Part shown: one piece after another, positions 3,266 to 58,985 of the stretch | Layout: every line of letters starts with the position of its first letter | How positions within the stretch are numbered: position 1 is the stretch's first letter | Source: Candidatus Woesearchaeota archaeon | Lineage (GTDB): Archaea > Nanobdellota > Nanobdellia > Woesearchaeales > GW2011-AR9 | DNA: 64,000 nt | Direction of reading: 5' to 3' | NCBI GenBank assembly: GCA_018696595.1 | Contig: JABHQW010000001.1 | Span: 6,223 to 70,222, forward strand | Position numbers and translations under genes: made by a program | Notes under the pieces: model-generated | Told to the model about the DNA's origin: nothing | The model's database searches: none | The model's input: the letters and a program-made list of their open reading frames with translations, nothing else

Positions 3266-3799
3266 ATGGCAACTAAAAAGAAAGATGACGGACATTTTTT
3301 TAACCATTCAAAGATATTAGAATTTAACATGAATGTGGATGCACAATTGATTACAAAATCTAATTTCATTTTTGGTGCAAGTACCTTAGTTTTGATGTTT
3401 GTTTTATACCAAGTATTTGCTGAAAAGTTAATATTAGATGGTTTGGCCAATAAATTACCTTGGTTAATATTAATTATTGGAAGTTTTACTGCTGCCTTGT
3501 TGTCAATGATGGTAATTATGCCAAAGATTTTTTTATTTTCTAAAAAAAAGAGAGTTAAAGAAGACATATTTTATTATAAGAATATCAACAAATTTTATTC
3601 TCGTGAGAAATATGCTGATTACCTCTATGATTTACCGCGTAATGAAAGAAAAGTTTCCGATGCATATGCACACCAAATTTATTCATTAGCTAACACGATC
3701 CTTCCGTTTAAATTTAAGATGATAAAAATATCTGGTTGGATGTTAACATTCTCAATCCTGTTAAGTATATTAACATACTTTGCAATGAGTTTATTTTAA
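3266..3799 (+). CDS. small membrane protein (2-4 TM helices)
   Basis: 177 aa; hydrophobic segments FIFGASTLVLMFVLYQVF, LPWLILIIGSFTAALLSMMVIM and C-terminal WMLTFSILLSILTYFAMSLF; BRE/TATA CGAAAGATTTAAATAA about 25 nt upstream. Confidence 0.4.
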   Translation: MATKKKDDGHFFNHSKILEFNMNVDAQLITKSNFIFGASTLVLMFVLYQVFAEKLILDGLANKLPWLILIIGSFTAALLSMMVIMPKIFLFSKKKRVKEDIFYYKNINKFYSREKYADYLYDLPRNERKVSDAYAHQIYSLANTILPFKFKMIKISGWMLTFSILLSILTYFAMSLF

Positions 3800-19125: not shown

Positions 19126-19208
19126 ACGTTAATACCTCACTACGAGTTCAAAAAGACGCCAAAAATTTATAAAATTTTTATTGTCTTTTTTGATGTCATG
19201 ATAATAAA

Positions 19209-19439
19209 GTGGGCCTACAGGGACTTTCAAATCTCCAGGAAGATTTGTAGTCTCCTAAAGGATATTTGAACCCTGATCAACCGGTATCAACCCAAACTCT
19301 TCTTAAATAATTTGACTGCAGGGAAAATCCTGTTTTGATCAAACTTTTTTTAAAAATTTGGTCCGAAGCCGGCCGCACTTTTTGGCTAGCGCCTAAACTT
19401 TGTCTGACGCCAAGTATCCAGGTTATGCTATAGGCCCAC
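19209..19439 (-). ncRNA. structured ncRNA candidate A (paralog of 25459-25610), family unassigned
   Basis: 12-bp terminal helix GUGGGCCUAUAG/CUGUAGGCCCAC; 5' hairpin UUGGCG..CGCUAG; conserved 3' module GGUUCAAAUAUCC..GGAGACUA-CAAAUCU-UCCUGG-AGAUUUG-AAAGUCC; TATA CTTTAAAAATA about 25 nt upstream; UUUAUUAU after the 3' helix. Confidence 0.5.
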
Positions 19440-19481
19440 AATAAAAGGATAAAAGAAGAAGGTATTTTTAAAGTTATTGTC

Positions 19482-20132
19482 TTATTCAGTAATGTGTGGA
19501 TTTCTTAACTGATAAAACTTGTGTTCTTCATGTTTGATCACTCCATTTAAATAACCTATTTCAACCAATCCATCACAAACTTTTTCTAAACATTCTAAGG
19601 GAAGACGTTCATCAAAAGAAAATAAAGTTTCAACAGGAAAACCCGATTGTTCATCTCCATTTAAAATAGAATGGGGAATGTTTTCTTCAACCAACTTTTG
19701 CACATAAACAGATCTCATAATAGATTCAACTTTAGTCCAAAAAAGAGCCCCATTTTTCCAAAGTACCTTACAACCTGTTCTATCAGCAACTTGACGGTCA
19801 CGAGGAGAAATATTTCCAGTAATATATCTAAAATTTATTTGTCTTTCATTTTTACGAAATAAAACCCCCATTTGTTCAGGAGCTAAAGATTCTGTACTAC
19901 CTTCTTCTAAATAACCAGAAGCGTCAGGAAGCCTCATGTCTGAAAATCCCCCCCTAGGGAAATTTCCTGTCGAGGATAAGTAAAGTAAAGCGTCTTTTCC
20001 TTTAGTAAAAGATTTATAAGATAATTCTAATAAATCGGCTTTTGCTTCTAATAATTCCAAGATACATTCCTGATCGTCCAAAAACATTAAATCAATTCCT
20101 CTCCTAGCCATGTTTCTATTATGAAGTGACAA
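19482..20132 (-). CDS. receiver (REC) domain protein with uncharacterised C-terminal domain
   Basis: IDLMFLDDQE...GKDALLYL...FSDMRLPDASGYLE follows the CheY-like receiver pattern. Confidence 0.4.
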   Translation of the reverse strand: MSLHNRNMARRGIDLMFLDDQECILELLEAKADLLELSYKSFTKGKDALLYLSSTGNFPRGGFSDMRLPDASGYLEEGSTESLAPEQMGVLFRKNERQINFRYITGNISPRDRQVADRTGCKVLWKNGALFWTKVESIMRSVYVQKLVEENIPHSILNGDEQSGFPVETLFSFDERLPLECLEKVCDGLVEIGYLNGVIKHEEHKFYQLRNPHITE

Positions 20133-20194
20133 TTGATATTTAAATGTTTCCAGCCAAAAAGTTAATAAATGAAGTAAATAAAAGTAGGATTATT

Positions 20195-20349
20195 GCCCCG
20201 GTGGCCTAGTGGCTATGGCACCTGACTTGTAGCCAACTATCTACTATGTTTACAATAGTAAAGAAAGCATGGTAAGATATCAGGAGATCGCGAGTTCAAC
20301 TTCCGTTAGGGAGTTACAATCCCATGGATTGAAAGTCTCGCTCGGGGCT
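20195..20349 (+). tRNA. tRNA-Thr(UGU) with two introns (47 nt after position 37 and ~35 nt in the T-loop)
   Basis: Acceptor GCCCCGG/UCGGGGC; anticodon stem CCUGA/UCAGG with loop CUUGUA; T-stem GCGAG/CUCGC enclosing an expanded loop; oligo-T follows. Confidence 0.7.
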
Positions 20350-20372
20350 CTTTTTTCTTTTGTTACTCTAAA

Positions 20373-20400
20373 GTAATGAAATAAACGAAAGATTTATAAA
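20373..20400 (+). promoter_or_regulatory. BRE/TATA promoter GTAATGAAATAAACGAAAGATTTATAAA
   Basis: CGAAAG (BRE-like) abutting TTTATAAA; about 50 nt upstream of ATG 20451; near-identical copy at 25631-25658. Confidence 0.55.
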
Positions 20401-20450
20401 TCAAATTTGTTTCTAGATCATATCACACTAATTATGAGGAAAATAATAAA

Positions 20451-20933
20451 ATGACAGATACAGGAATGGAATTAACACAATCGCATGAACATGCATTAGA
20501 AACTGCAGTTCACCAATTTGGAATTGATTTAGTACCAATTGGTAGAGCTTATATAGATAGTTTAAATCACGAAGATTTTAGAGAAAGCGGAGTTTATGTT
20601 CTTTTTAGACCATTAGATGTAAATCCAGAATTGGGAGATTATAAAGAAAGGTTAGAAATGCTTACTAGAACTTATCTTCCTGGAGCTACAGAAGAATTTT
20701 TACAATTAGAAACTGATCGAAGAGAACTTTCTACTCAGTTAACTACAAGTAGAATGGGACTTAATAAACGAGAAATTGCTGATTATGAAAAAAGATTTCC
20801 TTTAGGTAAAAGCCGAGGTTATGAAGTTTTTGTAAAAGGCGGAAGAGGAAGTATTGACGTTTTAGCATTAAGAGAAACTAATACTATCCACACAGCAGAA
20901 ATGAAAGATCATGATTTAGTTCCTTACGAATAG
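20451..20933 (+). CDS. hypothetical protein
   Basis: 160 aa ORF with an SD (GAGG) 8 nt upstream; first gene after the tRNA. Confidence 0.35.
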   Translation: MTDTGMELTQSHEHALETAVHQFGIDLVPIGRAYIDSLNHEDFRESGVYVLFRPLDVNPELGDYKERLEMLTRTYLPGATEEFLQLETDRRELSTQLTTSRMGLNKREIADYEKRFPLGKSRGYEVFVKGGRGSIDVLALRETNTIHTAEMKDHDLVPYE

Positions 20934-20945
20934 AGGTAAAATAAA

Positions 20946-21185
20946 ATGAGAAGAATGATTACTGATAAAAAGCGTGAAGAAGATTTAGCTAATGAAGTTA
21001 TAGAAGATTTGGAACATTGGACAAATCCATATAATGGTGCAGTTAATTCAAGTACAACTTATCAACAACTAGGCGTTGGATTTTTTGCTGCTGAACCAGA
21101 CTCACAAGAATTATTGGATCAAGGATTTAATAATCGTGTTGATGGCTCATATTTTAGAAATAATCGAATTGAAGAGGATGAATAA
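20946..21185 (+). CDS. hypothetical small protein
   Basis: 79 aa ORF in the co-directional string. Confidence 0.3.
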   Translation: MRRMITDKKREEDLANEVIEDLEHWTNPYNGAVNSSTTYQQLGVGFFAAEPDSQELLDQGFNNRVDGSYFRNNRIEEDE

Positions 21186-21186
21186 A

Positions 21187-21621
21187 ATGAAAATATTAGA
21201 AAAAATTGTTAATGCAGGAAAATACATTGCAGGAACCGCTAGTCTTTTAGCTATGGCCAGCGGATGTGCAACTACTACAACTTATGATGTAAACCAATTC
21301 TGTGGAAAAATGCCATTTCAAGATGGAACAGTAAAAGAAGCCGTAAAGAGAGTTGATGACCGAGGTATTGAGATATCATATTTAAGAGTAGAAAATGATT
21401 CAGAAATATTTGAAAAGATGGATTATGATGGAGATGGATTTTCTGAAACTCAAGTTTATAGGAAAACTCACTCAGATGGTTCAAAAACTTTTGTAAGATG
21501 TGCAAATGATGAAGGAGTTTTGAATGGTCAAGTAACAAAAAAAGGAGCTTGGACTTTAAGTCAAACTGAAAAGAATGCCGCAGGAGAAATAGTTAAAGAA
21601 GATTATCAAATTGCTAGATAA
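21187..21621 (+). CDS. lipoprotein
   Basis: Signal peptide with lipobox LLAMASGC. Confidence 0.4.
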   Translation: MKILEKIVNAGKYIAGTASLLAMASGCATTTTYDVNQFCGKMPFQDGTVKEAVKRVDDRGIEISYLRVENDSEIFEKMDYDGDGFSETQVYRKTHSDGSKTFVRCANDEGVLNGQVTKKGAWTLSQTEKNAAGEIVKEDYQIAR

Positions 21622-21805
21622 AATGACAGGAATCAAATACCAAAAACCAGTACTTGAAACAAGACCATTATTTGAACCTTCTGGGCAAGTTGATTTAGAT
21701 GCTTTTTATATTGCGGCGAAAGTTATTGATGAAAAGAAATATGTTAAGATGTATCAAAGAGAATTAAAAGCAGTAATGGCAGATAAATTAAATAAAGAGG
21801 AATAA
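21611..21805 (+). CDS. hypothetical small protein
   Basis: 64 aa ORF overlapping its neighbours. Confidence 0.25.
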   Translation: MLDKMTGIKYQKPVLETRPLFEPSGQVDLDAFYIAAKVIDEKKYVKMYQRELKAVMADKLNKEE

Positions 21806-21808
21806 AAA

Positions 21809-22450
21809 ATGACATACCAAATACATGATGTTAACACAATAAAAGCTCGCTTCGGAGAATCAGCAGAAGCATTTGAACAAGGACTTAATTTTCAACATTC
21901 AGATTCAATTTTCTTGAGAGTAAAACAAAGGTCAGTAAATCCAGAAGAGATGGACTGTAGTTTAGAAGGAATGGACTTACTAATCTCTGGAAACCATTAT
22001 GAAGCAGAAGAGGGTGAACTTGTTGAGTTAGATTATGAGAATGAAACTTGGCACAAACCAGTTCAAGGGCAGAAAGTAGAAGTTCCTTTTAAGGGTACAG
22101 TACAAGTAACCCATCTTGGAGAAGATTCTGTTCGTCCCCCATTTCAGATAAAGGAAGGAGAATTTGATTATAGTAAAACCACATTTTTATTTCAAAGAGA
22201 AGATTGCCCTGATTTATATTTCTTAGGAGACTCTTTGAGAGGAGCTTACGGAACAGTTGGCTTAAGTCAAGAAATTGTGGATGAATTAAGTAAAGAAAAT
22301 GCATTATACAAAGTTCTTACAGAAGAACCAATAACATTAGGCCCAAAACAAACATTAATAGTGCCTCACGAAGGAATTGTTAGAGTTAGTTTAGAAGCAA
22401 GATTAAATGATCCAGATAAAGAAGTTGTTGTTAAAGGTTCAGGGATTTAA
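21809..22450 (+). CDS. hypothetical protein
   Basis: 213 aa ORF. Confidence 0.35.
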   Translation: MTYQIHDVNTIKARFGESAEAFEQGLNFQHSDSIFLRVKQRSVNPEEMDCSLEGMDLLISGNHYEAEEGELVELDYENETWHKPVQGQKVEVPFKGTVQVTHLGEDSVRPPFQIKEGEFDYSKTTFLFQREDCPDLYFLGDSLRGAYGTVGLSQEIVDELSKENALYKVLTEEPITLGPKQTLIVPHEGIVRVSLEARLNDPDKEVVVKGSGI

Positions 22451-22545
22451 TTTTAATTTTCTTTCTCTTTTTTTCCGCAATATTTATATATATAACAACT
22501 ATTTTCAACATAAAATAATGATAGATGTGATAAAGCATTCTGAAG

Positions 22546-23190
22546 GTGTTTAATATGAATGAACAATTAAAAACTGGTACTACTACGGTAGGAATTGTAT
22601 GTAAAGACGGAATTGTTTTAGCGGCTGATAAAAGAGCAACCGCAGGAACAATGATCGTGGACAAAAGAGCAGACAAAGTACACATAATCAATGACGATTT
22701 TGCTGTAACTTGGGCTGGGACTGTTTCAGATGCGCAATTAGTAACTAAGTTACTAAAAGCAGAACTAAAACTGAAAGAAGTTAAAACTAACAAAAGACCA
22801 ACTGCAAAAGAAGCAGCTAATTTATTGGGTGGATTATTATATTCAAGTATTAGAAGGCCAAGCATGATTCCAAGCATTGCTCATTTTTTGATGGGTGGAA
22901 AAGATACAAGTGGGATTCATCTTTACGATTTATTCCCTGATGGCAGTGTAACAAAAATAACCGACTTTGTATCTTCGGGATCTGGAAGTGTATTCGCTTT
23001 AGGAGTATTAGAAACACAATACACTCAAGATATGACTACAGAGAAAGGTGTTGAATTAGTAGTAAAAGCTATCAATACCGCCTTACAGAGGGATTCCTGT
23101 TCTGGAAACGGAATTGACGTAGTTGTAGTTAAGATGGAAGACATCAAGAAGGTGATGCACAAAGAAATAAGTTACAGTTTATTAAATTAA
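22546..23190 (+). CDS. psmB: proteasome subunit beta
   Basis: N-terminal propeptide then GTTTVGIVCKDGIVLAADKRATAG active-site Thr context. Confidence 0.9.
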   Translation: MFNMNEQLKTGTTTVGIVCKDGIVLAADKRATAGTMIVDKRADKVHIINDDFAVTWAGTVSDAQLVTKLLKAELKLKEVKTNKRPTAKEAANLLGGLLYSSIRRPSMIPSIAHFLMGGKDTSGIHLYDLFPDGSVTKITDFVSSGSGSVFALGVLETQYTQDMTTEKGVELVVKAINTALQRDSCSGNGIDVVVVKMEDIKKVMHKEISYSLLN

Positions 23191-23382
23191 ATTTTATCTT
23201 CATAAAAAGGCGCAAGTGCTTTTTTATGACTTTTTTCATATTCACTTTAAATATTCTTAAAAGAATTAAACAATGAGGACCCAATAAAATAAGGGTAAAA
23301 TAAAACAAAAATGGCAGACATAAAGAAAAATTTTCAATTTTTAAATGTCGGCCATTTGGAAAATAAATAAAAGGAAAATAAA

Positions 23383-25272
23383 ATGGCAGATATATTAAAA
23401 GAAATTATTAAAGTACTACCACACAATAAAATATCAGATGCAGCTTATGAAGCAGCAAACATCGTACTTTACACTAAAGATAAAGATTACTTCTTAGACA
23501 ATAAAGGAACAATCAGAGAAGCAGTTAAACAATTCAAAAAAAGAATTGAACTTAGACCAGACCCATCAATGTGTATGGAAATGGAAAAAGCAGAAAAACT
23601 AATCAAAACACTAATTCCAAAAGAAGCAGGAGCACAAAATTTCATTTTTGATGCACCAAGATCACAATTAATTATTCATGCTGATAAACCAGGCGTAGTT
23701 ATTGGAAAACAAGGAGAAATTCTGAAAGGTATTAAAGAAAAAACAATGTGGGTACCATTAATTAAAAGAAACCCACCAATAAGATCAAAACTAATTGAAA
23801 GTATTCGTTCAGTATTATATGAAAACGCTGATTATAGAAAAAAGTTCTTAGATAAAACCGGTCATCGAGTTTATGATGGTTGGTTAAGAGAAAAAAAACA
23901 CGAATGGGTAAGATTAAGTTTCTTAGGAGCAGCAAGACAAGTAGGAAGAGCTTGCTTATTATTACAAACACCAGAATCAAGAATAATTATGGATTGTGGG
24001 ATTGATCCCAGTCAAGATGGACCAGAATCTTATCCTTACTTAGATGCACCAGAATTTAACATTGATGAAATTGATGCAGTTATTGTAACACATTCACATT
24101 TAGACCATAGTGGTTTAATTCCTTACTTGTTTAAGTATGGATATAAGGGTCCCGTTTATTGTACCTTGCCAACAAGAGATGTAATGTCCTTATTACAGTT
24201 AGACATGGTTAAGATTCAAAGAAATGAAGGTAAAGACCCAATTTACACTAGTGAAGAAGTTAGAGACATGGTTTTACATACAATCTGCTTAGAGTTTGAT
24301 GCAGTTACAGATATCACACCGGATGTAAGGATTACTCTTTACAATGCGGGACACATCTTAGGAAGTTCATTGGTTCATTTGAATATTGGTAATGGTTTGC
24401 ATAACATTGTTTTTACTGGCGATTTAAAGTATGGTCGAACAAACGTTCTAGAAGCAGCAAATACTCAATTTCCAAGAGTAGAAACTTTAATTATGGAATC
24501 CACTTATGGTGGAAAAGATAACGTTATGAACGAACAAGAAGCTGATGCATATATGGTTGATGTTGTTAAGAAGACCTTTGAACGTGGTGGAAAAGTTTTA
24601 ATGCCCGTTCTTGGAAGTGGAAGAGCACAAGAAGTAATGATTATTGTTGAAAGGTTAATGAGAGAAAAGAAAATCCCTCAGGTGCCCGTATATTTAGATG
24701 GAATGTTATGGGACATCACAGCAATCCATACAGCCTATCCGGAATTCTTAAACAGAAACATTAGGCAACAGATCTTTCATAAAGAAAATAATCCGTTCTT
24801 ATCTGAAATATTTAAAAGAGTAGGATCTAAAAAAGAACGGGACCAGATTATTGCGGAAGAAGGTGCTTGCTTAATTCTAGCAACATCAGGAATGTTACAG
24901 GGCGGACCATCTGTAGAATATTTAAAACATCTGGCAGAAGGTAAAAAACATAGTTTAGTATTTTCTTGTTATCAGCCACCTGGAAGTTTAGGACATCGTA
25001 TTAGGGGTGGAGAAACCGAGATTATGATGAGAGAAAATGGTAAACAGCAAGTTCTTAGAATCAATATGGATGTGCACAAAGTTGAGATTACTAACCATTC
25101 AGATAGAAAGCAATTGATGAACTATGTTAAGAGATGTAACCCAACTCCAAGAAAAGTGATTTTAATGCATGGTGAGAGTTCTAGATGTCTAGACTTAGCT
25201 TCGTCTTTACATAAACAGATGAGAATTGAAACTAATGCACCTAAGAATTTAGAAGTTATTCGAATTAGGTAA
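23383..25272 (+). CDS. archaeal CPSF1-type beta-CASP ribonuclease (KH-KH-MBL-betaCASP), transcription termination factor aCPSF1/FttA
   Basis: 629 aa; N-terminal KH modules, HSHLDHSG metallo-beta-lactamase motif, beta-CASP C-terminus. Confidence 0.85.
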   Translation: MADILKEIIKVLPHNKISDAAYEAANIVLYTKDKDYFLDNKGTIREAVKQFKKRIELRPDPSMCMEMEKAEKLIKTLIPKEAGAQNFIFDAPRSQLIIHADKPGVVIGKQGEILKGIKEKTMWVPLIKRNPPIRSKLIESIRSVLYENADYRKKFLDKTGHRVYDGWLREKKHEWVRLSFLGAARQVGRACLLLQTPESRIIMDCGIDPSQDGPESYPYLDAPEFNIDEIDAVIVTHSHLDHSGLIPYLFKYGYKGPVYCTLPTRDVMSLLQLDMVKIQRNEGKDPIYTSEEVRDMVLHTICLEFDAVTDITPDVRITLYNAGHILGSSLVHLNIGNGLHNIVFTGDLKYGRTNVLEAANTQFPRVETLIMESTYGGKDNVMNEQEADAYMVDVVKKTFERGGKVLMPVLGSGRAQEVMIIVERLMREKKIPQVPVYLDGMLWDITAIHTAYPEFLNRNIRQQIFHKENNPFLSEIFKRVGSKKERDQIIAEEGACLILATSGMLQGGPSVEYLKHLAEGKKHSLVFSCYQPPGSLGHRIRGGETEIMMRENGKQQVLRINMDVHKVEITNHSDRKQLMNYVKRCNPTPRKVILMHGESSRCLDLASSLHKQMRIETNAPKNLEVIRIR

Positions 25273-25458
25273 GTGTTAGCAATCGCACTACCGCCAATGG
25301 AGGCGATTTTCTGAATATGTTCTCAAGATTACTAATACATGAAGCAACGCGAAGTGCTTGAGAACTGAGGAAAATAATAAACGCCGTGCCGTAGTGCTAT
25401 TTTTTCATTGAATTTTACCTAAACTTTTATAAACCGCTTTATTTCTTTATCTTTTATT

Positions 25459-25610
25459 GCCAGCGTCGCATAATCCGGTATTGCGCTGGTCTTGAAACCT
25501 TTGGTTTTGACCTAATACCAGATAACCAGTTCCTTTTGGAATTCCCGGTTCAAATATCCCCCAGGGAGACTACAAATCTTCCTGAAGATTTGAAAGTCCG
25601 GGCGCTGGCG
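25459..25610 (+). ncRNA. structured ncRNA candidate B (paralog of 19209-19439)
   Basis: TATA TTTTATAAA 25425-25433 about 26 nt upstream; terminal pairing GCCAGCG/CGCUGGC; 5' hairpin CCAGCG..CGCUGG; conserved 3' module GGUUCAAAUAUCC..GGAGACUA-CAAAUCU-UCCUGA-AGAUUUG-AAAGUCC; followed by UUUUAUU. Confidence 0.5.
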
Positions 25611-25630
25611 CTTTTATTCTTCACTCAATA

Positions 25631-25680: not shown

Positions 25681-26688
25681 ATGTTTACACTACAACCCCA
25701 AATTGGTGAAGCTAGAAGAAAAAAAGAAGCAATTCTTAGGAACCCCGAATATTCTAGAAGCAAAAGAACTCAATTTACAAACATGCTCCAACTAGAATCT
25801 AATGTGAATTCTGCAATTATGGAAATTGCAAGTGGTAGTACTGAAATGGGTGTAACTAAATCTAGTACTGGCGATGTTGATTCTCCTCATGTATTAAAAA
25901 GAAATGTGGAAGATATATGGAAGTGGTTATTAGAAGAAACAGAAGACAAGATATCAATAGACCAACCAAATATTATTGCTTTAGCAAAAAAATTTAGCCC
26001 AATGAATACTAATTTCAATTATCGTCAAGACAGAGTACATATGAAAGGATTACAATATGCGCCACCTAACCCCTTAAAAGTACCAGAATTAATGGATAGT
26101 GTGGAACACCACATCTCATGTCAAGACATTAATCCATTAGAAAGAGCTTTAATAGCACATTTCCATATAACTAGAATCCAACCTTTTAATGATGGTAATA
26201 AAAGAACAGCAAGAATGGTACAAAATTTAATTTTACATAAAAATGATTATGTGCCAATTTTAATTAAAGAAGGAGAAAGAAGTTTTTATATAGACTTATT
26301 AGAATCTGCAATGATAGCCTTTAAAGATCGGACTTCAAGTTTAGCCCCAGGATCAGAATCATGTTTTACTCCTGAATTATCTCAACAAGAAAGACAATTC
26401 TTTAGCTATTTGGTTGCCAAAGAAGTATCTGCATTAGATGATGTCAAAGATCATTTAGCGAAAAATAGAGAATATTTAGTTACAATGGGAAGACAAGAAC
26501 CAGGAGTACTTTACGCAGGTAAAAAATTAATCAAAGGATTTTTCAGAAAAAGAGATTTAAATGGCAGAGTTAAACTAAATCAGCAAGAACGTTATTTAAA
26601 GATTTTCGGAGATATTAGCAGAGATCAAGTAGAAACAATATTAGATAGCAAACCGGGCCAATACGAACTAAAAACAATTACAGACTAA
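25681..26688 (+). CDS. Fic/DOC family protein (putative AMPylase/toxin-like)
   Basis: HFHITRIQPFNDGNKRTARM matches the Fic motif HxFx(D/E)GNGRxxR with K in place of the second G; about 120 aa C-terminal extension. Confidence 0.75.
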   Translation: MFTLQPQIGEARRKKEAILRNPEYSRSKRTQFTNMLQLESNVNSAIMEIASGSTEMGVTKSSTGDVDSPHVLKRNVEDIWKWLLEETEDKISIDQPNIIALAKKFSPMNTNFNYRQDRVHMKGLQYAPPNPLKVPELMDSVEHHISCQDINPLERALIAHFHITRIQPFNDGNKRTARMVQNLILHKNDYVPILIKEGERSFYIDLLESAMIAFKDRTSSLAPGSESCFTPELSQQERQFFSYLVAKEVSALDDVKDHLAKNREYLVTMGRQEPGVLYAGKKLIKGFFRKRDLNGRVKLNQQERYLKIFGDISRDQVETILDSKPGQYELKTITD

Positions 26689-38265: not shown

Positions 38266-39489
38266 ATGAAATATGCTCATTTAGCAGACTTGCATCTTGG
38301 AAGTTGGAGAGATGATAAAATGAGAGAACTTTCCACGAAAGCTTTCTTAACAGCAATAGATGACTGTGTTCAGAAACAAGTAGATTTTATTCTTTTTGCA
38401 GGAGATTTGTTTAACACATCTCTTCCAAACTTAGACACGTTAAAAATAGTAACTAAGAAACTTAAAGATCTTAAAGACAAAAACATTCCTGTTTATGCAA
38501 TTGCAGGCAGTCACGATTTCTCACCAACAGGAAAAACTATGATTGACGTTTTAGAAAATGCGGGATTATTAATTAACGTTTGTAAAGGATCAGTAAATCA
38601 AGAGAACAAACAGTTACATCTGGGTTTTACAGTAGATCCAAAAACAGGAACAAAGATAACCGGCATGTTGGGCAAGAAAGGTTTACTAGACAAAATTTAT
38701 TATCAAAACTTATTTTTAGAAAATTTAGAACAAGAACAGGGCTATAAGATATTTATGTTTCACACAACTTTATCTGAATTGAAACCAAAACATTTAGAGA
38801 AGATTGAGTCTCAACCAGTATCATTTTTACCAAAAAATTTTCATTATTATGCTGGTGGTCATATCCATCATCCTACAAAAGTCCATCAGGAAGGTTATGG
38901 AACATTAACTTATCCTGGCGCGTTATTTCCAAATAACTTTTCTGAGTTAGAAAAGTATAGTAAAGGAAGTTATTTTTTAGTAACTGTTGAGAATGATGAA
39001 CAAAAAGTTGAATTAGTACCATTAGAAATTATAAAACATAATTCTTTAATCTTAAACTGCCATCGTAAGACTCCAGAAGTAATCTCATTTGAAATACTAA
39101 ATCATTTCCACGAATTAGATGTAAAAGAAAGTTTGATTACAATCCGTCTCACTGGAACCTTAGATAAAGGTAAGGTCTCAGATATTAATTTCAAAGAAGT
39201 TTTTAGTCAACTCTATAGTAAAGGGGCATTTTTTATTATGAAGAATACTGCTCAGTTAACTTCGGAAGAATTTGAAGAAATTAAGATTTCACATTCTAAT
39301 CCCGAAAATGTTGAAGAAGAAATTATTAAAGAACATTTACAACAGATTAAACTATTTGACAGAGACTCCGAATTACACCTAACTAAATCTTTGATGAGGG
39401 TTCTTAATACTACAAAGAAAGAAGGCGAGACAGTAACTGATTTCCAAGGCCGAGTAAAAGAAGAAGTTAGTAAGTTACTGAATTTGTAG
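38266..39489 (+). CDS. Mre11/SbcD-like metallophosphoesterase (DNA repair exonuclease family)
   Basis: AHLADLHLG, FAGDLFN, GSHD, HIHH phosphoesterase motifs; no Rad50 partner adjacent. Confidence 0.6.
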   Translation: MKYAHLADLHLGSWRDDKMRELSTKAFLTAIDDCVQKQVDFILFAGDLFNTSLPNLDTLKIVTKKLKDLKDKNIPVYAIAGSHDFSPTGKTMIDVLENAGLLINVCKGSVNQENKQLHLGFTVDPKTGTKITGMLGKKGLLDKIYYQNLFLENLEQEQGYKIFMFHTTLSELKPKHLEKIESQPVSFLPKNFHYYAGGHIHHPTKVHQEGYGTLTYPGALFPNNFSELEKYSKGSYFLVTVENDEQKVELVPLEIIKHNSLILNCHRKTPEVISFEILNHFHELDVKESLITIRLTGTLDKGKVSDINFKEVFSQLYSKGAFFIMKNTAQLTSEEFEEIKISHSNPENVEEEIIKEHLQQIKLFDRDSELHLTKSLMRVLNTTKKEGETVTDFQGRVKEEVSKLLNL

Positions 39490-57770: not shown

Positions 57771-58985
57771 TTAAAAAGTGTTTTCTTCAACTTTGTTTAT
57801 TTCTGGAGGAGTATCTGTACTCTCAAAATTCAATCCAACTTTCAAAGCTTCTACCTTATCAGTTTTTTCCCAAGTAAAGTCTGGGTCGTCTCTTCCAAAG
57901 TGTCCGTAAGCAGCAGTCTTCTTGTAAATTGGTCTTCGTAAATTCAATTGGTCAATAATTGCTTTTGGTCTAAAATCAAAAGTATTCTCAACCAACTCAA
58001 CAATCTTCTCTTCAGGAATTTTATTAGTTCCGAAAGTATTCACTAAAACAGAAACTGGTTTTGCAACACCGATTGCATAAGCAACTTGAACTTCACATTT
58101 ATCAGCCAAACCAGCAGCAACAACATTCTTTGCCACATACCTAACGTAATAAGATGCACTTCGATCTACTTTACTAGGATCTTTCCCAGAGAAAGCTCCA
58201 CCACCATGACTACCATGGCCACCGTAAGTATCAACAATAATTTTTCTTCCAGTTACACCAGCATCACCAACAGGACCACCGATTACAAACTTTCCAGTTG
58301 GGTTAACAAAGTAGTTTGTATTGTCATCAATCCAATCAGCACAAATTGGTTTAATGATTTTTTCAATCATGTCTCTATGGATAGTTTCCAAATCCACATC
58401 AGGGTGATGTTGAGTAGAAATAACAACAGTTTCAACTCTTTTAGGTTTACCATCCTCATACTCTACTGTAACTTGTGATTTCCCATCTGGACGTAAATAC
58501 CAAACTTCTCCTCTTTTACGAGCAGAAGCTAATCTTTGACATAATTTATGAGCAAGAACAATTGGTAAAGGCATATATTCAGCAGTTTCATTTGATGCAT
58601 AACCAAACATTAAACCTTGATCTCCTGCTCCTTGTTCGTCATATAATCCTTCTCCCTCAGAAACTCCTTGAGAGATATCTGGGGATTGTTCTGATAATGC
58701 TGCCAATACACCACAAGTAGAACCTTCAAAACCAAATTCTGGTTTATCATAACCAATTTCTAGAACAGTATCTCTAACAATTTTCTGTACATCAATATAA
58801 GTTGTAGTAGTAACTTCTCCAGCCACAACAACGAATCCTGTTTTTGTTAAACATTCTACTGCAACCCTTGCATTAGGATCGTCGGTATAAATTGCATCTA
58901 AGACTGCGTCCGAGATCTGGTCACACATTTTATCAGGGTGACCTTCAGTAACACTTTCACTTGTAAAAAAATATTTATTTGCCAT
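57771..58985 (-). CDS. metK: S-adenosylmethionine synthase, bacterial/eukaryotic MetK type
   Basis: [36 protein letters not shown] motifs. Confidence 0.95.

Follow-up and report, generated by a model that had tools for sequence, protein, structure and literature searches.

Intron-containing tRNA-Arg, tRNA-Ser and tRNA-Thr genes, very probably protein-spliced, share a T-loop intron in a Woesearchaeota archaeon

Results

Three interrupted tRNA genes in one window

We analysed a 64,000-nucleotide stretch of Candidatus Woesearchaeota archaeon contig JABHQW010000001.1 (the window), in which two paralogous structured-RNA loci, A and B, had been described from sequence alone (the original prediction). 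Both loci were found where they had been placed. When three inserts were cut from locus A in silico, ARAGORN returned a perfect tRNA-Arg(UCG) cloverleaf that keeps U8, A14, G18G19, A21, U33, GTTCAAAT and C61, and removal of the T-loop insert from locus B gave a tRNA-Ser(UGA), a class II tRNA with a long variable arm; with long introns allowed the program makes calls readily (a call of some kind came from 1172 of 11999 random single deletions of A). The RNA lengths first proposed, 231 and 152 nt, hold for the precursors (228 nt for Arg, 152 nt for Ser), while mature RNAs would be 73 nt, counting discriminator A (anticodon 19366-19364), and 83 nt with discriminator G (anticodon 25493-25495). A third gene, tRNA-Thr(UGU) (mature length 73 nt, anticodon 20228-20230), had been overlooked; it was found by an intron-agnostic acceptor/T-stem scan, its nhmmer match being weak, and folds as a cloverleaf once its introns are excised. 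Because this related gene sits between A and B, the inversion of the two loci around 6.3 kb is without significance. Coordinates are collected in Table 1.

Table 1. Genes, introns and flanking elements at the three loci
Feature	Position	Strand	Basis
tRNA-Arg(UCG) gene (locus A)	19210..19437	-	Cloverleaf after excision
Arg D-loop intron, 37 nt, about 20/21	19381..19417	-	BHB geometry
Arg 37/38 intron, 77 nt	19286..19362	-	ARAGORN intron call, geometry
Arg 59/60 (T-loop) intron, 41 nt, TATCCTTTAGGAGACTACAAATCTTCCTGGAGATTTGAAAG	19224..19264	-	BHB-type geometry, homologs
Arg upstream TATA-like box TTTAAAAATA	19463..19472	-	Read from sequence
T-rich tract after Arg CTTTATTATC	19200..19209	-	Read from sequence
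tRNA-Thr(UGU) gene	20195..20349	+	Acceptor/T-stem scan, nhmmer, cloverleaf after excision
Thr 37/38 intron, 47 nt	20232..20278	+	Strict hBHBh' motif
Thr 59/60 intron, 35 nt, divergent subtype, TTCCGTTAGGGAGTTACAATCCCATGGATTGAAAG	20301..20335	+	Geometry
Thr upstream TATA-like box TTAATAAA	20162..20169	+	25 nt to gene start
T-rich tract after Thr CTTTTTTCTT	20350..20359	+	Read from sequence
tRNA-Ser(UGA) gene (locus B)	25459..25610	+	Cloverleaf after excision
Ser 37/38 intron, probably 27 nt	25497..25523	+	Variable arm, central helix, 3' junction
Ser 59/60 (T-loop) intron, 42 nt, TATCCCCCAGGGAGACTACAAATCTTCCTGAAGATTTGAAAG	25555..25596	+	BHB-type geometry
Ser upstream TATA-like box TTTTATAAA	25425..25433	+	Read from sequence
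T-rich tract after Ser CTTTTATTCT	25611..25620	+	Read from sequence

The unspliced Arg, Ser and Thr genes were all missed by ARAGORN and Rfam, which is a useful result in itself. The Rfam check proposed for the two original loci gave no family match to either, even at E<=10, and their reclassification came through in-silico splicing. A/T-rich TATA-like boxes about 24-34 nt upstream of A and B and T tracts after both 3' ends were confirmed, and the box lies 25 nt from the gene in tRNA-Thr and tRNA-Ser alike. At a window GC of 33%, such boxes alone are weak evidence; the T-rich tract past tRNA-Arg is probably an archaeal terminator. The gene context is archaeal (FttA, proteasome subunit, aEF1A, aEF2, S10, L7Ae), and no splicing endonuclease gene was found in the window among the best 25 of 82 Pfam families.

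The terminal helices of A and B are indeed perfectly complementary and differ in sequence because they are the acceptor stems of different tRNAs. The 12 bp of A do not form a single terminal helix; they comprise a 7-bp acceptor stem, two leader/trailer pairs and three fortuitous ones, and ARAGORN starts at base 3. The 5' hairpin NNGGCG/CGCUNN, said to be shared with compensatory changes, turned out not to be homologous: in A it lies within the D-loop intron, and in B it opposes the acceptor 5' strand to the D-stem/anticodon-stem junction. The claim that these are real RNA genes of one family, folded and each transcribed on its own, survives, the supposedly unknown family being tRNAs.

Introns in the D loop and at 37/38

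Three introns interrupt tRNA-Arg (D loop, 37/38 and 59/60) and two each, at 37/38 and 59/60, interrupt tRNA-Ser and tRNA-Thr. The predicted cuts of the D-loop intron are CCTGG|ATAC...CCAAA|AAGTGC, with an ambiguity of +/-1 nt. It has bulges GG|A and AA|A, a central helix TACT:AGTG and an inner helix TGGC:GCCA, and with no outer helix it is a relaxed HBh' motif. Its excision leaves a D arm, GCAT-AACCTGGAA-GTGC, that resembles the D arm of locus B.

A scan for BHB geometry yields many chance matches, and the strict hBHBh' motif of the tRNA-Thr 37/38 intron served as positive control (outer helix 5, bulges TA|G and AT|A, inner helix 3, central helix C-G, U-A, U-A, G.U). The tRNA-Arg 37/38 intron has 3-nt bulges GG|A and AT|A, outer and inner helices of 7 and 9, and a central helix C-G, U.U, U.U, C-G with two U.U mismatches. 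The boundary in tRNA-Ser is ambiguous, with ARAGORN offering a 19-nt alternative (25497-25515). The 27-nt reading is probably correct: it gives an 83-nt class II tRNA-Ser whose 14-nt variable arm resembles that of the Ser relative L076, it forms 3/4 central helix pairs against 0/4 for the shorter reading, and it ends in GAT|A, the 3' junction of all four 37/38 introns of this genome.

A common intron at position 59/60

The conserved 3' module of loci A and B is a T arm (GGTTCAAAT...CC) with a common 41-42-nt intron at 59/60. A 35-nt block, GGAGACTACAAATCTTCCTGRAGATTTGAAAGTCC, occurs in exactly two copies in the window, against 0 expected from shuffles. The segment GAAAGUCC, once likened to the RNase P CR-I motif, is instead made up of the intron 3' end (GAAAG), T60 and then the T stem. 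The geometry is identical in Arg, Ser and Thr, with a 5-bp outer helix (the T stem), a central helix TTCA:TGAA and bulges NN|T and AG|T; the 5' bulge in Arg is AA|T, and in Thr the T-loop complement TTGAA is likewise followed by AG|T. The intron 3' segment ATTTGAA is complementary to the T loop TTCAAAT, and their pairing leaves a 3-nt bulge A-G|T at the T stem, the 3' cut, the 5' cut falling after A59. Predicted exon junctions are ...GGTTCAAA|TCCCTG... (Arg), ...GGTTCAAA|TCCGGG... (Ser) and ...GTTCAAC|TCTCGC... (Thr). The intron is closed off by two further elements, a covarying hairpin GGGAGA:TCYYCC and an inner helix, which in most relatives reads ATCC:GGAT. The motif is a relaxed bulge-helix-bulge that departs from the strict 3-4-3 BHB. 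Read in strict register, the copies in the window have an inner helix of just 0-1 bp, and a 7-bp T-loop:intron helix can take in the 5' cut site.

The search for homologs in public genomes and metagenomes recovered 37 occurrences of the 59/60 cassette in 32 distinct genes, every one within a T arm; carriers include named Woesearchaeota and Nanoarchaeota MAGs, which points to a DPANN lineage of this type for the window. After a cut at 59/60, 23 of the 32 were called as tRNAs, for Ser, Gln, Glu, Gly, Arg, Cys, Trp, Ala and Lys, 7 of the 23 without further edit. With the Thr of the window included, the cassette is present in the T loops of at least ten tRNA types. The boundaries are fixed by comparison alone, since one tRNA-Glu ortholog (L084) has the insert and the other (L088) a plain T arm, ACGGG-TTCAAAT-CCCGT.

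The CAAATCT/AGATTTG complementarity that had been noted is real: of 30 homologous T arms, 26 preserve it in full (7/7). Covariation is seen at its one free pair (C-G 14, U-A 13, U-G 2, mispair 1). The fold in which the intron pairs with the exon is the MFE structure in 22/30 of these arms and at most 1.5 kcal/mol off in 27/30. For the inner hairpin the median z is -4.3, with values below -2 for 25 of 26 distinct middles, and its outer positions show several Watson-Crick pair types. The junction, T-loop complement followed by AG|T, is fixed in 30 distinct T arms and in 6 of 7 unrelated inserts at 59/60.

Discussion

The loci are very probably protein-spliced, intron-containing archaeal tRNA genes. 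Each would be transcribed from its own TATA-like promoter, with nearly no leader, up to a T-tract terminator. At bulge-helix-bulge-type motifs the archaeal tRNA splicing endonuclease would then cleave the precursor, and an RtcB-type ligase would rejoin the exons. As the T loop GTTCRAAT is nearly universal, one intron sequence could build its splice motif no matter which tRNA carries it; this would account for near-identical introns in many isoacceptors. The cassette may be portable between tRNA genes.

The original interpretation, a novel structured ncRNA family of ~231/152 nt with a 3' bulged hairpin (GGAGACUA-CAAAUCU-loop-AGAUUUG-AAAGUCC) as core and a variable terminal helix, agrees with the Rfam result and with the conserved CAAATCY:RGATTTG pairing and its covariation. 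We regard it as extremely unlikely: everything beyond the inserts is a textbook tRNA element, excision leaves perfect cloverleafs with correct anticodon loops and, for Ser, a class II arm, the module recurs across T loops of so many tRNA types and is missing from the L088 ortholog, its fold lies 3-16 kcal/mol above the exon-paired one in 30/30 arms, and the 5' hairpin dissolves on comparison. That the loci are instead dead tRNA genes, with T-loop insertion scars or small mobile DNA that is never removed, would fit their rejection by standard tRNA finders and the departure from a strict BHB, and is nevertheless very improbable. The exons show no decay, with perfect stems and every invariant nucleotide kept, and the loci are 100% identical in six contigs of different samples. 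Among the sampled tRNA genes of this genome the insert is present in 3/4 and introns in 4/4, so if these were pseudogenes the cell would lack several essential tRNAs. Covariation within the insert and the fixed AG|T junction also speak against scars, as does the in vitro splicing of an equivalent 59/60 hBH intron of ARMAN-2 (PMC3239211).

A different question is how a spliced intron came to be so widespread. It could be ancient and vertically inherited in each tRNA, its likeness arising from T-loop pairing and not from transposition or gene conversion. Part of the likeness is indeed enforced, because the 3' segment has to be complementary to GTTCRAAT in every tRNA, and the cassette occurs in MAGs of varied environments. 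This origin nonetheless seems rather unlikely to us, since the likeness reaches the exon-unpaired loop GACYACAAA and the stem GGGAGA, and subtypes group by contig or lineage and not by isotype. In the window the Arg and Ser genes both carry the AAATCTTCCTGR subtype, and identical 42-nt introns occur in a Gln gene (L028) and the Ser gene L076. Orthologs differ in intron presence, and orthologous Gly genes have unrelated introns of 40 and 86 nt, both at 59/60.

The 59/60 site, relaxed DPANN motifs, multi-intron tRNAs and introns common to isoacceptors have all been published. Position 59/60 is a listed non-canonical tRNA intron site (PMC4090602) and the T-arm equivalent of 37/38, because both arms have a 5-bp stem and a 7-nt loop. 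As in the canonical 37/38 BHB, the stem forms the outer helix, the 3' site lies in a 3-nt bulge adjoining it, the first four loop nucleotides pair with the intron 3' end, and the 5' cut comes two nucleotides later. The exon partner at 37/38 is the variable anticodon loop, whereas at 59/60 it is the near-invariant T loop, and here the 5' bulge and inner helix are relaxed (5 bp and a 2-nt bulge, or 4 bp and a 3x1 internal loop).

The closest precedent is the pre-tRNA-Cys(GCA) of ARMAN-2 (Ca. Micrarchaeum), whose 59/60 hBH/BHL intron is cut in vitro by the epsilon2 endonuclease (PMC3239211). The host is likewise a DPANN archaeon, the intron sits at exactly this position, a single clean bulge adjoins the T stem in a relaxed motif, and further introns are present in a highly disrupted tRNA gene set. 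That intron is 13 nt long and was reported from single genes, whereas ours measure 35-43 nt, share a conserved inner hairpin that covaries, and form one sequence family that recurs in many isoacceptors and several lineages. In DPANN archaea, endonucleases with the L3 loop go together with disrupted tRNA genes, and genes of this kind are expected to lie undetected in these genomes (PMC5829648).

Multi-intron tRNA genes and 'large-scale tRNA intron transposition' are described for Thermoproteales (Fujishima et al. 2010; Sugahara et al. 2008; as summarised in PMC4033280 and PMC4090602). According to these summaries, such genes have up to three introns, at sites such as 20/21, 37/38 and 59/60, and near-identical introns sit at one position in tRNAs of different isotype. 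Those hosts are hyperthermophilic Crenarchaeota, whereas ours are mesophilic, marine or freshwater DPANN-type archaea, and the intron sequence family is probably a different one. Hidden tRNA genes are also known from Patescibacteria (PMC13011429), again ultrasmall, genome-reduced organisms whose introns hide tRNA genes from standard annotation; there the introns are bacterial group I ribozymes that splice themselves and run to hundreds of nt, whereas the archaeal ones here measure 19-77 nt and would be spliced by proteins.

Identification of loci A and B as tRNA genes

Loci A and B had been described as two folded RNAs of a new family that could not be placed, with a conserved 3' module at its core. 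Their sequences are as described, and the window contains exactly two copies of the 35-nt block GGAGACTACAAATCTTCCTGRAGATTTGAAAGTCC, where none is expected by chance. Read by eye, the module of both loci begins with GGTTCAAAT, a T-arm signature, and the terminal helices are followed by a D-arm-like stretch (T/A-N-GCAT-AA-YC-YGG-(T)A), together suggesting tRNA genes with several inserts. When 42 nt between TTCAAA and T-CCGGG were removed from locus B, ARAGORN called a tRNA-Ser(UGA) that has a long variable arm and an intron in its anticodon loop. In locus A, deletions tested by brute force placed the start of the tRNA frame at base 3 of the terminal helix first described, with the acceptor GGGCCTA/TAGGCCC abutting the T stem CAGGG/CCCTG. 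Excision of its D-loop and T-loop inserts gave a perfect tRNA-Arg(UCG) cloverleaf with an intron at 37/38. An intron-agnostic scan, based on T stem and acceptor complementarity at any spacing, found both loci again and also tRNA-Thr(UGU), where a module profile (nhmmer) had a weak independent match.

Complete cloverleafs were obtained with ARAGORN for Arg(UCG), Ser(UGA) and Thr(UGU) after in-silico excision, with mature lengths of 73, 83 and 73 nt, respectively. All have a 7-bp acceptor stem and discriminator, a D arm with A14, G18G19 and A21, a 5-bp anticodon stem with a 7-nt loop (U33, purine 37), and a 5-bp T stem with a GTTCRANY loop and C61. The tRNA-Ser is of class II, having a 14-nt variable arm (TTCC-TTTT-GGAA-TT; 15 nt in the related Ser gene of contig L076) and G73, the discriminator of archaeal tRNA-Ser. 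ARAGORN with -i was too permissive to decide alone (1172 calls of many isotypes from single deletions of locus A), so bulge-helix-bulge (BHB) geometry and conserved tRNA nucleotides were used as criteria. We conclude that loci A and B and the tRNA-Thr gene are multi-intron archaeal tRNA genes, a known kind; their splicing, the enzymes responsible and the mode of spread discussed below are inferred.

Intron-containing tRNA genes and T-loop inserts (a caret marks the predicted exon junction)
Feature	Coordinates	Strand	Introns and context	Predicted junctions
tRNA-Arg(UCG), locus A	19210-19437	-	D loop, 37 nt; 37/38, 77 nt; 59/60, 41 nt	CCTGG^AAGTGC (equivalently CCTGGA^AGTGC); CTTCGG^ACCGG; GGTTCAAA^TCCCTG
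tRNA-Thr(UGU)	20195-20349	+	between loci A and B; 37/38, 47 nt; 59/60 (T loop), 35 nt, divergent	CTTGTA^ATCAGG; GTTCAAC^TCTCGC
tRNA-Ser(UGA), locus B	25459-25610	+	37/38, probably 27 nt; 59/60, 42 nt	CTTGAA^AACCAG (27-nt reading; CTTGAA^TACCAG if 19 nt); GGTTCAAA^TCCGGG
tRNA-Asn(GUU)	L110 1298-1413		about 9 kb past the window's 64000 end; 37/38, 40 nt; plain T loop	
Other T-loop insert	L083 194-349		neighbouring tRNA gene	
Other T-loop insert	L101 329-443		neighbouring tRNA gene	
Other T-loop insert	L095 724-855		neighbouring tRNA gene	
Other T-loop insert	L095 94-259		neighbouring tRNA gene	
Other T-loop insert	L103 10027-10165		neighbouring tRNA gene	
Other T-loop insert	L082 846-1133		neighbouring tRNA gene	

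Alternative assignments and the failure of standard searches

An Rfam scan of both loci, suggested in the original prediction, gave nothing relevant: there was no tRNA match at locus A, at locus B or in the whole window, at the gathering threshold or at E<=10, and the E<=10 output for each locus and the window was weak CRISPR-DR, lncRNA and miRNA noise. ARAGORN found 0 tRNA genes on the raw 64 kb, with and without -i; its runs on raw sequence, lowered thresholds included, yielded either nothing or a spurious tRNA-Ile. All three tRNA genes of the window thus escape both ARAGORN and the Rfam tRNA model (RF00005), as expected for unspliced genes with two or three inserts, one of them within the T loop. 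A separate ARAGORN 'tRNA-Ile' with a 253-nt intron in contigs L107/L108 overlaps protein genes and was rejected. The BHB models of tRNAscan-SE 2.0 were trained on Cren-, Eury- and Thaumarchaeota (PMC8450103), and the predicted tRNA sets of DPANN genomes are reported to be incomplete (PMC5829648). In this clade, searching with the cassette taken into account could recover tRNAs that are now missing, and genome-quality calls based on tRNA counts could be corrected.

A new RNA family would agree with the lack of Rfam matches at these loci, which is also expected from the inserts, and it is contradicted by the Arg and Ser cloverleafs obtained on excision. The supposed novel core is the T arm together with a 59/60 intron; this intron is here called the cassette. 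The likeness of GAAAGUCC to the RNase P CR-I motif is explained by the intron 3' end, T60 and the T stem, and the 5' hairpin thought to be shared with compensatory changes is not homologous between loci A and B. The loci were rightly said not to fit RNase P, SRP, H/ACA or C/D RNAs, none of which had an Rfam match at either locus at E<=10. Group I introns were also rejected, as the inserts are 19-77 nt long versus a catalytic core of a few hundred nt, and no Intron_gpI match was found. Elsewhere in the window, at 38798-38907 (+), an H/ACA snoRNA model matched below threshold (30.4 bits against a gathering threshold of 44, E 0.24); lying within a long ORF (38266-39486), this match is probably noise.

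Predicted splice motifs

Archaeal BHB substrates are cut between the second and third bulge nucleotides. This rule reproduced the 37/38 junctions of the window genes. Since a de novo scan for BHB geometry was permissive (dozens of chance matches), it was used just for independently predicted sites. The Thr 37/38 intron has a strict hBHBh' motif (5 / TA^G / 4 bp / AT^A / 3), and that of Arg has correct bulges and strong flanking helices around a central helix with two U.U mismatches. ARAGORN proposed a 19-nt intron for Ser, which we set aside for one of 27 nt with a far better BHB fit (3/4 central-helix pairs versus 0/4). The Arg D-loop intron is bounded by two 3-nt bulges, with a central TACT:AGTG helix and an inner TGGC:GCCA helix; the outer helix is absent.

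The canonical geometry applied here has a 3' bulge beside an outer helix, a central helix in which exon loop nucleotides form 4 bp with the intron 3' end, and a 5' bulge. The three T-loop introns in the window share one arrangement, with the T stem as outer helix, a 3' bulge AG^T, a central TTCA:TGAA helix and a 5' cut after nucleotide 59, which defines an intron at 59/60, the T-arm counterpart of 37/38. Their inner helix and 5' bulge are weak, and the motif is of the relaxed hBH type. At minimum energy, ATTTGAA is paired to the entire T loop (TTCAAAT) over 7 bp; in another fold of nearly equal energy, TTCAA:TTGAA and ATC(C):(G)GAT form together with a 2-nt bulge. The three 59/60 introns of the window all end in GAAAG^T, and all four 37/38 introns sampled in this genome end in GAT^A (3' bulge A-U^A). 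These fixed ends may reflect a lineage-specific endonuclease preference. Neither splicing endonuclease nor ligase was among the best 25 of 82 Pfam families in the 64-kb window.

Distribution of the cassette in related genomes

About 65 of the 69 stretches matched by the genome-scan pattern were chance matches in bacteria, as estimated beforehand. The real matches (L008, L020, L028, L042) all lie in tRNA T arms, as did all 31 stretches from the metagenome scan; scanned viral contigs held no cassette copies. L028 belongs to a Ca. Woesearchaeota MAG and L008 to a Nanoarchaeota MAG, and such named carriers of the cassette suggest the lineage of the window. L020 and L042 come from records titled 'uncultured Methanosarcinales archaeon' (SRP256446 MAGs), and their 59/60 cassette, which lies in AT-rich tRNA contexts, is of the same DPANN type. 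Either their label or binning is wrong, or else the cassette is present outside DPANN.

After a cut at 59/60, ARAGORN called 23 of 32 distinct genes (Ser, Gln, Glu, Gly, Arg, Cys, Trp, Ala and Lys), seven of them with no further edit. The remaining nine probably hold additional introns, as locus A does. A tRNA-Glu gene in L084 has the T-loop insert and no 37/38 intron. In L088 a near-identical ortholog shows the reverse: its T arm is plain (ACGGG-TTCAAAT-CCCGT) and its intron sits in the anticodon loop. This pair fixes the intron boundaries without any folding argument and demonstrates gain and loss.

The fetched loci also contain neighbouring tRNA frames that were not search seeds; of these, 10 had plain T loops and approximately seven had an insert at 59/60. 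The latter inserts are 29-86 nt long and of unrelated or divergent sequence, some belonging to unrelated families. Six of seven end in the T-loop complement followed by AG^T, the exception being the L095 insert that ends in GGATGT. The inserts of L083 and L101 have TTCGAAACAA...TTGGCGAAAGT in common, with an internal expansion in L083, and the orthologous Gly genes of L088 and L083 carry different 59/60 introns.

Conserved pairing within the cassette

Further members with conserved or compensatory pairing, as anticipated by the original prediction, were found in related genomes (the 32 distinct tRNA genes), and their inner hairpin covaries. The search patterns had fixed GTTCRAATATCC and GATTTGAAAGTCC, leaving the insert's middle as the only part free to vary; this middle forms a hairpin GGGAGA:TCYYCC (median z -4.3 against shuffles, below -2 in 25 of 26 distinct middles). 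Compensatory changes were observed at its outer pairs, e.g. CAGGGAGA/TCTTCCTG, CTTGGAGA/TCTCTAAG and GAGGGAGA/TCTCCTTC. The MAFFT alignment A1 was structure-inconsistent for the inner hairpin (two sub-types in different register), and an anchor-based tabulation was added; hairpin columns 19-42 gave GC 16, CG 4, UG 4, UA 1 and GU 1. Six contigs of the same population carry loci A and B at 100% identity (blastn) and therefore held no covariation information.

The long hairpin CAAATCU/AGAUUUG proposed for the module stood as a conserved complementarity and fell as the preferred fold. CAAATCY:RGATTTG is complementary at 7/7 positions in 26 of 30 members, and its sole free pair is C-G in 14, U-A in 13, U-G in two and a mispair in one. 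This hairpin and the exon pairing compete for one GGATTTG segment. The exon-paired fold is better by 3-16 kcal/mol in 30/30 T arms; it is the minimum-energy structure in 22 and within 1.5 kcal/mol of it in 27. We infer that CAAATCY:RGATTTG may be an alternative state, e.g. of the excised intron.

Possible spread across tRNAs and relation to known systems

The Arg and Ser T arms of the window, 59/60 introns included, are 90.6% identical over 53 nt, and the 59/60 introns of Gln (L028) and Ser (L076) are identical. The cassette was found in at least 10 isotypes, with the window's Thr included. Near-identical introns thus occupy one position in tRNAs of different isotype, as in the shared or transposed intron families of Thermoproteales. 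It is possible, though we think it rather unlikely, that the 59/60 insert is a portable, self-propagating intron that has spread through much of the tRNA set of a marine and freshwater DPANN clade, possibly toggling between exon-paired and self-paired folds. Such an insert carries the complement of the nearly universal T loop and would thus be supplied with a splice motif in whatever tRNA gene it entered; transposition, gene conversion or reverse splicing could have spread it. Toggling would be between the cleavable exon-paired fold and the self-paired CAAATCY:RGATTTG, both of which are conserved pairings. That the exon half of the motif is the invariant T loop would explain, in a simple and testable way, how one intron can fit every tRNA.

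The kind of system is already known, and our findings do not change it. Position 59/60 has been listed among the non-canonical sites of tRNA introns (PMC4090602). In the DPANN archaeon ARMAN-2, 56% of tRNA genes are disrupted, and a 13-nt hBH-type 59/60 intron in pre-tRNA-Cys is cleaved in vitro by its own endonuclease (PMC3239211). Up to three introns per gene are documented in Thermoproteales, as are near-identical introns in different isodecoders, termed 'intron transposition' (PMC4033280, PMC4090602). L3-loop endonucleases occur in DPANN, including Woese- and Pacearchaeota, in association with disrupted tRNA genes; disrupted genes that have escaped detection are anticipated in these lineages (PMC5829648). 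A literature search of incomplete coverage found no description of the 35-43-nt 59/60 cassette. Its recurrence across isotypes and the intron density of this genome together provide a second, independent system outside Thermoproteales for studying the spread of protein-spliced introns.

Intron density and genomic context

A 59/60 intron was found in three of the four tRNA genes sampled from this population. The tRNA-Asn, with its plain T loop, shows that tRNA genes of this genome often, though not always, have the intron. With eight introns in the four genes, intron density in this one genome is very high. TTATT lies directly 5' of the three window genes, at 19438-19442 (-), 20190-20194 (+) and 25454-25458 (+), in the contexts CTTTTATT^GT-GGGCC (Arg), GGATTATT^GCCCC (Thr) and CTTTTATT^GCCAG (Ser; caret, end of TTATT). 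TTATT, with a TATA-like box another 23-25 nt upstream in every case, may serve as an initiator or as a leader signal; in the Asn gene it is replaced by TTTGTT.

The window (33% GC) is archaeal housekeeping DNA, encoding FttA/aCPSF1, a proteasome subunit, aEF1A, aEF2, S10, L7Ae and ArgRS, and the same population is present on many marine metagenome contigs. Directly downstream of tRNA-Ser is a gene for a Fic/DOC-family protein (25681-26688, +). An ORF at 3266-3796 (+) (L107 13023-13556) has a precomputed match to PycTM, the domain that serves Pycsar anti-phage systems as transmembrane effector; no adjacent cyclase was noticed. An ORF at L107 1748-2353, approximately 8 kb ahead of the start of the window, has a faint match to LAGLIDADG_3 (homing endonuclease) and is a possible mobile-intron remnant. 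Within this otherwise archaeal window, 57774-58985 (-) encodes a bacterial-type three-domain S-adenosylmethionine synthetase (S-AdoMet_synt N/M/C); this enzyme and a Dus dihydrouridine synthase encoded elsewhere in the window were possibly acquired horizontally.
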